DNA from: Escherichia coli
GTDB taxonomy: Bacteria; Pseudomonadota; Gammaproteobacteria; Enterobacterales; Enterobacteriaceae
Direction: 5' to 3' (one strand)
DNA length: 64,000 nt
Assembly (NCBI RefSeq): GCF_002854065.1
Contig: NZ_CP024147.1
The translations under genes were made by a program, and so were the position numbers. Numbering within the stretch: the stretch's first letter is position 1; the number at the start of each line of letters is the position of its first letter. A model generated the notes under the pieces. That model was not told the origin of the DNA. It saw nothing but the letters and a program-made list of their open reading frames with translations, and ran no database searches. Positions 17,299 to 23,053 of this stretch are shown piece after piece.

Positions 17299-17968
17299 AC
17301 GTTATTTTGTCACCGGAACGGATACCGAAGTGGGGAAAACTGTCGCCAGTTGTGCACTTTTACAAGCCGCAAAGGCAGCAGGCTATCGGACGGCAGGTTA
17401 TAAACCGGTCGCCTCTGGCAGCGAAAAGACCCCGGAGGGTTTACGTAATAGTGACGCGCTGGCGTTACAGCGCAACAGCAGCCTTCAGCTGGATTATGCA
17501 ACGGTAAATCCTTACACCTTCGCAGAACCCACCTCACCGCACATCATCAGCGCGCAAGAGGGCAGGCCGATAGAATCATCGGTAATGAGCTCCGGATTAC
17601 GCGCGCTTGAACAACAGGCTGACTGGGTGTTAGTGGAAGGCGCTGGCGGCTGGTTTACGCCCCTTTCTGACACTTTCACTTTTGCGGATTGGGTAACACA
17701 GGAACAACTGCCGGTAATACTGGTGGTTGGCGTGAAACTTGGCTGCATTAATCACGCGATGTTGACGGCACAGGCGATACAACACGCCGGGCTGACTCTG
17801 GCGGGTTGGGTGGCGAACGATGTCACGCCTCCGGGAAAACGTCACGCTGAATATATGACCACGCTCACCCGCATGATTCCCGCGCCGCTGCTGGGAGAGA
17901 TCCCCTGGCTTGCAGAAAATCCAGAAAATGCGGCAACCGGAAAGTACATAAACCTTGCCTTGTTGTAG
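17291..17968 (+). CDS. bioD: Dethiobiotin synthetase
   Basis: GTG start giving (M)[16 protein letters not shown] with P-loop; 225 aa. Confidence 0.9.
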
Positions 17969-17981
17969 CCATCCTGTATTT

Positions 17982-18029
17982 GGTTAAATTGCGAGCGAGA
18001 TCGCGTCTTCGATTGACTGCAATTTAACC
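17982..18029 (+). terminator. Hairpin after bioD, putative bio operon terminator
   Basis: GGTTAAATTGC / GCAATTTAACC inverted repeat just downstream of bioD stop. Confidence 0.4.
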
Positions 18030-18127
18030 AATTAAATTCTAAAATAATCACGAAAAAAATTTTACTTCCGCATCATGCGGCGAATGTGGGAATTGCCCAA
18101 GCGGCGGGGGATAGGGGCTGCAGACAG

Positions 18128-18150
18128 TTATCCACTATTCCTGTGGATAA
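18128..18150. promoter_or_regulatory. Inverted pair of DnaA boxes upstream of uvrB
   Basis: TTATCCACT and TGTGGATAA (9-mer DnaA box matches) in opposite orientation. Confidence 0.6.
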
Positions 18151-18452
18151 CCATGTGTATTAGAGTTAGAAAACACGAGGCAAGCGAGAGAATACGCGGC
18201 TTGCACGCGAATTGGCGTTAAAGACGGCTCAAAGAAATATCTTTTATTTTTTAACTGGTTAGATAATTGCAATGGCAGTCACTGAACAGGCATCTCTTGC
18301 CATAAAACTGACATCACTCATCTTGACAAATGTTAAAAAAGCCGTTGCTTTGGGGATAACCCGGTAAGGTCCGAGTTTTATCTCGCCACAGAGTAAATTT
18401 TGCTCATGATTGACAGCGGAGTTTACGCTGTATCAGAAATATTATGGTGATG

Positions 18453-18472
18453 AACTGTTTTTTTATCCAGTA
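18453..18472. promoter_or_regulatory. LexA box (SOS operator) of uvrB with adjacent -10
   Basis: AACTGTTTTTTTATCCAGTA (CTG-N10-CAG) followed by TATAAT. Confidence 0.85.
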
Positions 18473-18546
18473 TAATTTGTTGGCATAATTAAGTACGACG
18501 AGTAAAATTACATACCTGCCCGCCCAACTCCTTCAGGTAGCGACTC

Positions 18547-20568
18547 ATGAGTAAACCGTTCAAACTGAATTCCGCTTTTAAACCTTCTGGCGATCAGCCA
18601 GAGGCGATTCGACGTCTCGAAGAGGGGCTGGAAGATGGCCTGGCGCACCAGACGTTACTTGGTGTGACTGGTTCCGGGAAAACCTTCACCATTGCCAATG
18701 TCATTGCTGACCTTCAGCGCCCTACCATGGTACTTGCGCCCAACAAAACGCTGGCGGCCCAGCTGTATGGCGAAATGAAAGAGTTCTTCCCGGAAAACGC
18801 GGTGGAATATTTCGTCTCCTACTACGACTACTATCAGCCAGAAGCCTATGTACCGAGTTCCGACACCTTCATTGAGAAAGATGCCTCGGTAAACGAACAT
18901 ATCGAACAGATGCGTTTGTCCGCCACCAAAGCGATGCTGGAGCGGCGTGATGTGGTTGTGGTCGCGTCTGTTTCCGCGATTTATGGTCTGGGCGATCCTG
19001 ATTTATATCTCAAGATGATGCTCCATCTCACGGTCGGTATGATTATCGATCAGCGCGCGATTCTGCGCCGACTGGCGGAGCTACAATACGCTCGTAATGA
19101 TCAAGCATTCCAGCGTGGTACTTTCCGTGTTCGTGGCGAGGTGATTGATATCTTCCCGGCAGAATCGGATGACATTGCACTTCGCGTGGAACTGTTTGAC
19201 GAGGAAGTGGAACGATTGTCGTTATTTGACCCGCTAACCGGGCAGATTGTTTCCACCATTCCACGTTTTACCATCTACCCGAAAACGCACTACGTCACAC
19301 CGCGCGAGCGCATCGTACAGGCGATGGAGGAGATCAAAGAAGAGCTGGCCGCCAGACGCAAAGTGCTATTGGAAAACAACAAACTGCTGGAAGAGCAGCG
19401 GCTGACCCAGCGTACCCAGTTTGATCTGGAGATGATGAACGAGCTGGGCTACTGTTCGGGGATTGAAAACTACTCGCGCTTCCTCTCCGGTCGTGGACCG
19501 GGTGAGCCACCGCCGACGCTGTTTGATTACCTGCCTGCCGATGGGCTGCTGGTGGTCGATGAATCTCACGTCACCATTCCACAAATTGGCGGCATGTATC
19601 GCGGTGACCGGGCGCGTAAAGAGACACTGGTGGAGTACGGCTTCCGCCTGCCATCAGCGCTGGATAACCGTCCGCTGAAATTTGAAGAGTTCGAAGCATT
19701 AGCGCCGCAAACCATCTATGTTTCGGCGACGCCAGGTAATTATGAGCTGGAAAAATCCGGCGGCGATGTGGTGGATCAGGTGGTGCGTCCAACCGGATTG
19801 CTTGATCCGATTATCGAAGTGCGGCCAGTGGCGACACAGGTTGATGATCTTCTTTCGGAGATTCGTCAGCGAGCGGCAATTAACGAACGCGTACTGGTCA
19901 CCACACTGACCAAGCGAATGGCGGAAGATCTTACCGAATATCTCGAAGAACACGGTGAGCGCGTGCGTTATCTTCACTCAGATATCGACACCGTCGAGCG
20001 TATGGAGATTATCCGCGACTTGCGTCTGGGTGAGTTCGACGTGCTGGTGGGGATCAACTTACTGCGCGAAGGTCTGGATATGCCGGAAGTTTCGCTGGTG
20101 GCGATCCTCGACGCTGACAAAGAAGGCTTCCTGCGTTCTGAACGTTCGTTGATCCAGACCATTGGTCGTGCGGCACGTAACGTTAACGGTAAAGCGATTC
20201 TCTACGGCGATAAGATCACCCCATCAATGGCGAAAGCGATTGGCGAAACCGAACGTCGCCGCGAGAAACAGCAGAAGTACAACGAGGAACACGGCATTAC
20301 GCCGCAAGGCTTGAACAAGAAAGTGGTCGATATCCTGGCGTTGGGGCAGAACATTGCTAAAACCAAAGCGAAGGGCAGAGGAAAATCGCGCCCGATTGTT
20401 GAGCCGGATAATGTGCCGATGGATATGTCGCCTAAAGCGTTGCAGCAGAAGATCCATGAACTGGAAGGGTTGATGATGCAACACGCGCAAAATCTGGAGT
20501 TCGAAGAAGCGGCACAAATTCGTGACCAGTTGCATCAGTTGCGTGAATTGTTTATCGCGGCTTCGTGA
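18547..20568 (+). CDS. uvrB: Excinuclease ABC subunit B
   Basis: 673 aa; Walker A GVTGSGKT; recognised UvrB. Confidence 0.97.
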
Positions 20569-21924: not shown

Positions 21925-22063
21925 TATCGGCTTAACCACTAAACACTCTAGCCTCTGCACCTGGGTCAACTGATACGGTGCTTTGGCCGTGACAATGCTC
22001 GTAAAGATTGCCACCAGGGCGAAGGAAGAAATGACTTCGCCTCCCGTATCTGGAAAGGTGTAC
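21925..22063 (+). ncRNA. Putative molybdenum-cofactor (Moco) riboswitch in moaA 5' UTR; borders approximate
   Basis: Structured GC-rich leader directly upstream of moaA with CCUCCC near the start codon; position matches the known Moco RNA motif of moaABCDE. Confidence 0.5.
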
Positions 22064-23053
22064 ATGGCTTCACAACTGACTGATGCATTTGCGCGTAAGT
22101 TTTACTACTTGCGCCTGTCGATTACCGATGTGTGTAACTTTCGTTGCACCTACTGCCTGCCGGATGGCTACAAACCGAGCGGCGTCACCAATAAAGGCTT
22201 TCTGACCGTCGATGAAATTCGCCGGGTTACGCGCGCCTTCGCCAGTCTGGGCACCGAAAAAGTCCGTCTGACAGGTGGTGAGCCGTCTTTACGCCGCGAC
22301 TTTACCGATATCATCGCCGCTGTGCGAGAAAATGACGCTATCCGCCAGATTGCGGTCACCACCAATGGTTACCGTCTGGAACGCGATGTGGCGAACTGGC
22401 GCGATGCTGGACTTACTGGCATCAACGTCAGCGTTGATAGTCTGGACGCCCGCCAGTTTCACGCTATTACCGGGCAGGATAAATTCAACCAGGTGATGGC
22501 AGGGATTGATGCTGCATTTGAGGCTGGTTTTGAGAAGGTCAAAGTCAATACCGTGCTGATGCGTGATGTGAATCATCACCAGCTCGACACCTTTCTGAAC
22601 TGGATCCAGCATCGCCCTATCCAGCTGCGTTTCATCGAACTGATGGAAACGGGCGAGGGCAGCGAGCTCTTCCGTAAGCATCACATCTCTGGTCAGGTTC
22701 TGCGTGACGAGCTACTGCGTCGCGGCTGGATCCACCAATTACGTCAACGCAGCGACGGTCCCGCGCAAGTCTTTTGTCATCCGGATTACGCCGGAGAGAT
22801 TGGCCTTATCATGCCGTATGAAAAAGACTTCTGCGCCACTTGCAACCGTCTGCGCGTTTCCTCCATTGGTAAACTCCATCTCTGCCTGTTTGGTGAAGGC
22901 GGCGTTAACCTGCGCGATCTGCTGGAAGACGATACCCAGCAACAGGCGCTGGAAGCGCGTATTTCAGCGGCGCTGCGGGAGAAGAAACAGACCCATTTCC
23001 TGCATCAAAACAACACCGGTATTACGCAAAACTTATCGTACATTGGCGGCTAA
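22064..23053 (+). CDS. moaA: GTP 3',8-cyclase (radical SAM)
   Basis: Start at MASQLTDAF (329 aa); CNFRCTYC motif. Confidence 0.95.

Follow-up and report, generated by a model that had tools for sequence, protein, structure and literature searches.

DnaA boxes and a LexA operator upstream of Escherichia coli uvrB: the DARS1 core in its promoter context

What is the function of the DnaA boxes upstream of Escherichia coli uvrB? A first-pass annotation of the window (the whole stretch of DNA analysed here, 64,000 nucleotides) had noticed an inverted pair of DnaA 9-mers at this locus, about 300 bp upstream of a LexA box, and took the arrangement to couple uvrB to both SOS and replication-initiation state. 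The window contains the E. coli bioBFCD-uvrB region, with the gene order bioB-bioF-bioC-bioD, a 578-bp spacer, uvrB, yvcK and moaA. The spacer was found in 5,424 of 5,426 complete E. coli genomes, at 95–100% identity.

A trio of DnaA boxes between bioD and uvrB

The elements around the DnaA boxes, in window coordinates, are these:

17969–18546: spacer between bioD and uvrB, 578 bp
18128–18136, plus strand: DnaA box I, TTATCCACT, one mismatch to TTWTNCACA (at position 9); DnaA-box7 in the uvrB promoter numbering
18137–18141: spacer between box I and box II, ATTCC, 5 bp
18142–18150, minus strand: DnaA box II, TGTGGATAA, which reads TTATCCACA on the minus strand; perfect consensus; DnaA-box6
18154–18162, minus strand: DnaA box III, TGTGTATTA, which reads TAATACACA on the minus strand; one mismatch to TTWTNCACA; DnaA-box5
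18163–18206: conserved flank of the core (TTAGAAAAC ... GCGAGAGAATACGCGGCTTGC), recognised as a conservation footprint
18547–20568, plus strand: uvrB coding sequence, 673 aa

The inverted pair lies exactly where it had been annotated, at 18128–18150. Both of its boxes are present, but the arrangement is really a trio, and box III at 18154–18162 had been missed. Box III starts 3 bp beyond box II in the same orientation, while box I is opposite to both, making a head-to-head pair with box II. Box II is the sole TTATNCACA of the window.

This is the published layout of DARS1. The DARS1 core is described as three DnaA boxes, with box I opposite box II across a 5-bp space and box III in head-to-tail orientation (PMC6868365, PMC5742627, PMC11724364), and box II as the only complete-consensus box of the element (PMC6868365, PMC11724364). 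The review "The DnaA Tale" locates DARS1 in the uvrB promoter region. A ChIP-seq table lists a DARS1 'double DnaA box', cTAATACACAtggTTATCCACAg (PMC11317965), which is the minus strand of window positions 18141–18163 and thus boxes II and III, and the DARS1-deletion primers of PMC4585315 bracket window positions 17981–18423. In the window we found three boxes with an opposed box I, spacers of 5 bp (I–II) and 3 bp (II–III), a location between bioD and uvrB, and identity to K-12 that includes the stimulatory flank: the core and approximately 45 bp of flank match MG1655 base for base. Compared with DARS1 of E. coli K-12 (Sugiyama et al. 2019, PMC6868365), the locus and the order, orientation and spacing of the boxes are the same and the element itself is without differences. 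The strain of the window differs from MG1655 by 8 substitutions elsewhere in the 578-bp spacer, none of them within 18123–18266 and none in the last 110 bp, where the LexA box and the proximal promoters lie.

The 35 bp at 18128–18162 are therefore very probably the core of DARS1 (DnaA-reactivating sequence 1) in the E. coli uvrB upstream region. This identification draws on sequence identity to K-12, box geometry and deep conservation, all computed here, together with published binding, ADP release and promoter effects. DnaA sites upstream of uvrB were reportedly described in 1985, and DARS1 is said to have been defined by Fujimitsu et al. in 2009. The inverted DnaA-box pair is thus already known and already explained, and adds nothing new. 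Its value as an observation is that reading the sequence alone picked out a real regulatory node, with its main function, the recharging of DnaA, unrecognised.

As for that function, release of ADP by the core in the window would follow from published work with the identical K-12 sequence. ADP-DnaA would first bind the consensus box II, as published for exactly this sequence (PMC6868365, PMC5742627). The protomer on box II would recruit a second to box I through a head-to-head AAA+ contact that needs Gln208, and a third protomer would be recruited to box III, head-to-tail and in a Leu290-dependent manner. ADP would be lost from the head-to-head pair, and the nucleotide-free DnaA would then leave DARS1 and bind ATP, yielding ATP-DnaA for the next initiation. 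DiaA stimulates the DARS1 reaction moderately, and E. coli DARS1 needs neither IHF nor Fis (PMC6868365, PMC5742627, PMC11724364). In the published element a stimulatory flank, given as 42 bp after the last box or as a regulatory region of about 50 bp, enhances ADP release in vitro (PMC4585315, PMC5742627). Judged by its position, the conserved segment at 18163–18206 corresponds to this flank, and would enhance the ADP-release reaction in vitro. To our knowledge, no in vivo role has been assigned to the approximately 50-bp flank of DARS1.

Footprinting had been named as the check on DnaA binding to the inverted pair, and published experiments provide it: ATP-DnaA strongly protects DARS1 from DNase I in vitro (PMC6015884). 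Deletion of DARS1 lowers the origin-to-mass ratio and reduces fitness (PMC4585315). The best-established function of the trio is to act on DnaA itself, and not the regulation of uvrB. As DARS1 recharges DnaA, the coupling to replication runs mainly from the DNA to DnaA, and not only from DnaA to uvrB.

The second DnaA-reactivating sequence, DARS2 (Kasho et al. 2014, PMC4245941), resembles DARS1 in having box I opposite box II across a similar 5-bp spacer, followed by box III, and both elements release ADP from ADP-DnaA. The I–II spacers in the DARS2 region of MG1655 are TTTTC and CTTTC. Unlike E. coli DARS1, DARS2 has weaker boxes and needs IHF (bound at IBS1-2) and Fis. Upstream of mutH in MG1655 we observed two DARS-core-like arrangements, 316 bp apart (L003:636–670 and L003:952–986). 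In both, a third box accompanies a head-to-head pair spaced by 5 bp, and each appears as a separate double box in the ChIP-seq table (PMC11317965).

The LexA operator and the uvrB promoters

The trio sits within a cluster of promoters. The elements that bear on transcription of uvrB are the following:

18128–18180 (approximate), plus strand: promoter uvrBp3, DnaA-repressed
18453–18472: LexA (SOS) box AACTGTTTTTTTATCCAGTA, LexA-box1; five mismatches to TACTGTATATATATACAGTA, with a CTG-N10-CAG core and an AT-rich centre
18463–18471, plus strand: weak DnaA-box-like 9-mer TTATCCAGT, inside the LexA box, two mismatches
18471–18476, plus strand: TATAAT, overlapping the LexA box by 2 bp
18480–18508, plus strand: candidate uvrBp1, TTGGCA, 17 bp, TAAAAT, from a promoter scan, 10/12 matches

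The LexA box with its abutting TATAAT had been placed at 18453–18476, some 300 bp downstream of the DnaA boxes. These positions are exact, the two motifs sharing 2 bp and the distance from the end of box II (18150) to the start of the LexA box (18453) being 303 bp. The proposal that this is a multi-promoter control region also agrees with the published map, in which uvrB has three promoters, uvrBp1, uvrBp2 and uvrBp3, and LexA-box1 lies between the –35 and –10 elements of uvrBp2 (Wurihan et al. 2018, PMC6015884). The LexA box in the window is the published uvrB 20-mer (PMC6015884). Compared with that promoter cluster we found no difference, the LexA box in the uvrBp2 spacer being identical and the trio corresponding to boxes 5–7 on uvrBp3.

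The TATAAT at 18471–18476 is likely to be the –10 element of uvrBp2. Eight base-pairs after the end of the LexA box begins the –35 hexamer of a uvrBp1-like promoter. This TTGGCA-17-TAAAAT promoter is likely to be uvrBp1 itself, with a start near 18514–18515, an assignment consistent with the numbering of the published fragments, where +33 adjoins the ATG (PMC6015884). The 9-mer TTATCCAGT is probably the published DnaA-box1, which LexA-box1 is reported to overlap (PMC6015884). No comparable hexamer pair was recognised for uvrBp3: a σ70 consensus scan of 18100–18200 gave no match of 9/12 or better over the core.

The features expected of a LexA operator are thus present, namely a 20-bp box with CTG-N10-CAG and overlap with core promoter elements. 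In published footprints the uvrB box is protected at the lowest LexA concentration (PMC6015884). A strong LexA box that occupies the uvrBp2 spacer and the first two bases of its –10 element, just upstream of uvrBp1, would make uvrB SOS-inducible. Read from the cross-species loci described below, the operator is well conserved, with CTG-N10-CAG less than 200 bp from uvrB in 64 of 66 Enterobacterales. In the Aeromonadales-like loci we found no strict match, whether in the 200 bp next to uvrB or anywhere from the core to uvrB. The looser pattern CTGT-N8-CCAG occurs 4 times in the window against 1.28 expected; alone it is uninformative, and we did not count it as above chance.

The interplay of DnaA and LexA at the uvrB locus was published in 2018 (PMC6015884). 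DnaA boxes 5–7, which are DARS1, sit on uvrBp3, and DnaA represses this promoter (PMC6015884). Because uvrBp3 overlaps the core, DnaA bound there also acts as its repressor, and may face competition at this site from RNA polymerase or LexA. Could the boxes then be a transcriptional operator only, tying uvrB expression to replication state through repression of uvrBp3? The transcriptional effects are substantial: a TG-to-CA mutation in box 6, the consensus box, derepresses uvrBp3 5.9-fold, and uvrB mRNA is more than threefold up in dnaA(A345S) cells (PMC6015884). Against this reading, the head-to-head I/II pair with its fixed 5-bp spacer is the DARS signature, common to DARS2, which lies upstream of the unrelated gene mutH. 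Deletion of DARS1 alters initiation mass as well as fitness, and ADP release by the isolated fragment is already published. We consider it very unlikely that the boxes are an operator and nothing else; the operator role is real but additional. Of the first-pass annotation, the uvrB control region with its several promoters, the LexA operator and the DnaA sites stand, while the role of DARS1, and with it the main direction of the coupling, from DNA to DnaA, had been overlooked.

Between the trio and the LexA box lies a segment, CTTGACAAATGTTAAAAA at 18322–18339, whose conservation is confined to Enterobacteriaceae and Erwiniaceae. A perfect TTGACA is part of it, and the segment can be read as an imperfect inverted repeat (TTGACA-AA-TGTTAA). 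We found no –10 hexamer at a sensible spacing from this TTGACA.

Conservation of the core

Single motifs carry little weight at this locus. With one occurrence of the DnaA 9-mer TTATNCACA in the window where 2.46 are expected, this motif is not above chance. The inverted pair with 5-bp spacing gave one match in the window, with 0 mismatches, even when 3 mismatches were allowed, against 0.16 expected. It is the conservation of the core that establishes the observation as real. Of 5,424 E. coli genomes, 5,421 share exactly the same 60-bp segment around the core. The next 60 bp upstream, by contrast, have an identical copy in only 4 E. coli genomes, and megablast detected them in only 618.

For comparison across species we used 80 species representatives obtained in an unbiased search anchored on UvrB, a set without Vibrionales, Pasteurellales and Salmonella/Klebsiella. 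The full trio was present upstream of uvrB, on the uvrB strand, in all 66 Enterobacterales representatives, from Escherichia to Proteus, Photorhabdus, Yersinia, Serratia, Edwardsiella and Arsenophonus, and likewise in 8 of 10 Aeromonadales-like loci. The I–II spacing is invariant in 74 species and the spacer ATTCC is about 90% conserved. A control sequence of 469 kb contained only one further trio, 1.7 kb upstream of uvrB in a Rheinheimera. In Rheinheimera faecalis (L082:1256–1290), the DARS-core-like trio 1.7 kb upstream of uvrB is accompanied by an IHF-like 13-mer at +119. The other Rheinheimera loci, and those of Thalassotalea and Colwellia, had no DARS-core-like trio within the DNA fetched.

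Across the Enterobacterales the trio lies 330 to 545 bp upstream of the uvrB start codon (median 418), with or without bioD as a neighbour. A fixed strand and a position of 330–545 bp upstream of uvrB, kept even where bioD is not the neighbour, would also suit an operator of uvrB. Where a gene separates bioD and DARS1, DARS1 stays with uvrB and not with bioD. Such an extra gene, on the minus strand between bioD and DARS1, was seen in many Enterobacterales, at loci with a bioD-uvrB gap of 1.4–1.9 kb; in Enterobacter cloacae (L013:1527–2249) it is a 240-aa ABC-ATPase-like ORF.

The Aeromonadales point the other way. There a tRNA-Asn gene separates the retained module from uvrB, and no strict CTG-N10-CAG lies in between, which speaks against a purely transcriptional role of the boxes and argues for a module that does not depend on the SOS promoter. 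The tRNA-Asn(GTT) gene is on the minus strand, between the DARS1-like module and uvrB, in Aeromonas, Tolumonas, Oceanisphaera and Zobellella (L070:2701–2776, L076, L077, L083), and starts about 24 bp after a distal DnaA box that is described in the next section.

Boxes I and II also form a 9-bp inverted repeat (18127–18151) that could act as a hairpin in RNA, either as an intrinsic terminator or attenuator of bio read-through or as some other RNA structure. It was flagged by a terminator scan, with a 9-pair stem and a 7-nt loop, and folds at –16.5 kcal/mol. The folding z-score is only –1.72, however, with 10 of 200 shuffled sequences folding at least as well; G-C accounts for only four of the nine pairs, and the tail CATGTGTATT does not qualify as a U-tract. 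In seven species a change in one arm lacks a compensating change in the other, for example in Aeromonas (TTACCCAC versus GTGGATAA) and Arsenophonus (TTATCCCC), which indicates selection on each box and not on their pairing. Moreover, the repeat persists where bioD is absent, it has no Rfam match, and RNAalifold finds no conserved structure immediately downstream, in 18163–18365. An intrinsic terminator was rejected on the grounds that the stem is not G+C-rich, that there is no U-tract and that pairing is not maintained, and we regard a hairpin function of any kind as extremely improbable. The DARS1 core is the reading that we retain for the repeat.

A different hairpin, at 17980–18031, lies directly 3′ of the bioD stop codon. 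It has a 14-pair outer stem, TTGGTTAAATTGC...GCAATTTAACCAA, and a folding z-score of –2.96. It is without a U-tract, is poorly conserved beyond Escherichia, and may be a 3′ end structure of the bio operon. A search of 17900–18600 against RNA families (Rfam) gave no match; the sole sub-threshold hit, to a miRNA model, fell on this unrelated hairpin and is spurious.

A possible extended DARS1 module

Downstream of the core and its flank, two further elements in the window became apparent from comparison with relatives:

18248–18260, plus strand: degenerate IHF-like site, TTTTAACTGGTTA, two mismatches, at approximately +120 from box I; the same in K-12
18351–18359, minus strand: distal DnaA-box-like 9-mer, TTATCCCCA, one mismatch, +223 bp from box I, oriented like boxes II and III

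The IHF consensus WATCAANNNNTTR, on the plus strand and at +119 to +121 from box I, is matched with at most one mismatch in 47 of 67 Enterobacterales sequences, 21 of them perfectly, while every other offset gave 10 hits or fewer. Every core-bearing Aeromonadales-like locus also has a site matching the consensus, usually AATCAAATAGTTA, and so does the Rheinheimera copy. As a control, the same scan was applied to DARS2, where it returned two 13-mers, 3 bp apart, at +93 and +109, the published geometry of IBS1-2. The window itself has no match to the IHF consensus with one mismatch or fewer. The 13-mer TTTTAACTGGTTA is probably the decayed remnant of an IHF-consensus site, one that would bind IHF in relatives. 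Its decay would match the published IHF-independence of E. coli DARS1. Compared with DARS2, the window version of DARS1 thus has an IHF-like site at a comparable offset, but a degenerate one.

The distal box keeps its distance from the core, at 223.6 ± 1.5 bp from box I in 60 sequences, whereas anything from 39 to 196 bp separates it from the LexA box. In other genera its variants come closer to the DnaA consensus (TTATCCACC); the Aeromonadales have TTATCCACT as their distal box, roughly one helical turn farther from the core, at +233 to +236. The intervening 70-bp spacer shows 29% identity among 11 genera, which is the random level. The footprint was read over window positions 18163–18365, offsets +35 to +237 from box I, in loci L004–L078, L082 and L083. 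Over the same interval, on the plus strand of 38 species, RNAalifold predicted 0 pairs. Nor did any frame stay consistently open from the core to the distal box: the shortest "longest stop-free run" was 11–16 codons in every frame. With both searches negative, neither conserved RNA structure nor a conserved small ORF explains the constant spacer length.

Published ChIP-seq data bear on the distal box in another way. The DARS1 peak is given at coordinate 813,331 (PMC11317965, Table 1), which maps to window position 18352, on the distal TTATCCCCA box, roughly 200 bp away from the core. For DARS2, strong boxes are found no more than about 50 bp from each of the three peaks. The paper states that NC_000913.2 was used, but its coordinates fit NC_000913.3, since the DARS2 peaks fall on the DARS2 boxes in the latter. 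The offset at DARS1 may arise because the peak is broad and weak, or because the distal site is really occupied. No feature of the sequence speaks against the identification of the trio as DARS1; this peak coordinate, some 200 bp downstream of the core, and the lack of a strong σ70 match over the core are caveats.

Taken together, the comparisons suggest a tentative extension of DARS1, which we hold to be possible rather than probable. Ancestrally, DARS1 may have been a module of approximately 235 bp with fixed geometry, consisting of the head-to-head core, an IHF-consensus site at +120 and the distal DnaA box, and so larger than the published 101 bp. DARS1 and DARS2 would then share a plan of core, IHF site and distal site. 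In the Escherichia/Citrobacter lineage the IHF site would have decayed. DARS1 has been treated as self-sufficient within 101 bp, requiring no protein cofactor (PMC5742627, PMC11724364). If the extended module exists, DARS1 would be IHF-dependent, and perhaps timed in the cell cycle, in most other Enterobacterales and in Aeromonas, with the distal box contributing to the loading of DnaA or to feedback. The arrangement predicts that IHF controls the activity of DARS1 in many pathogens, among them Yersinia, Serratia, Proteus and Aeromonas.

An IHF site and a distal box at fixed distances would also give DARS1 the same design as DARS2, datA and oriC. In datA and oriC, the layout of DnaA box, IHF site and DnaA box resembles the extended module of the relatives. 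The activities differ, datA promoting ATP hydrolysis and oriC unwinding, and both are head-to-tail arrays in contrast to the head-to-head pair of the DARS elements. The extended layout was not found described in the DARS1 literature searched, which did not include the original DARS paper of 2009. It is a modest lead, and the sole part of the present findings that might be new.

Two further regulatory elements in the window lie outside the bioD-uvrB spacer. Upstream of moaA, at about 21930–22075, is a molybdenum-cofactor riboswitch, according to the RefSeq annotation of an E. coli genome with an identical bioD-uvrB spacer; it is unrelated to DARS1. A second SOS box, TATTGGCTGTTTATACAGTA, is found at 40125–40144, with five mismatches to the LexA 20-mer consensus. 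It is the LexA operator of dinG, and lies 15 bp upstream of the annotated dinG start.
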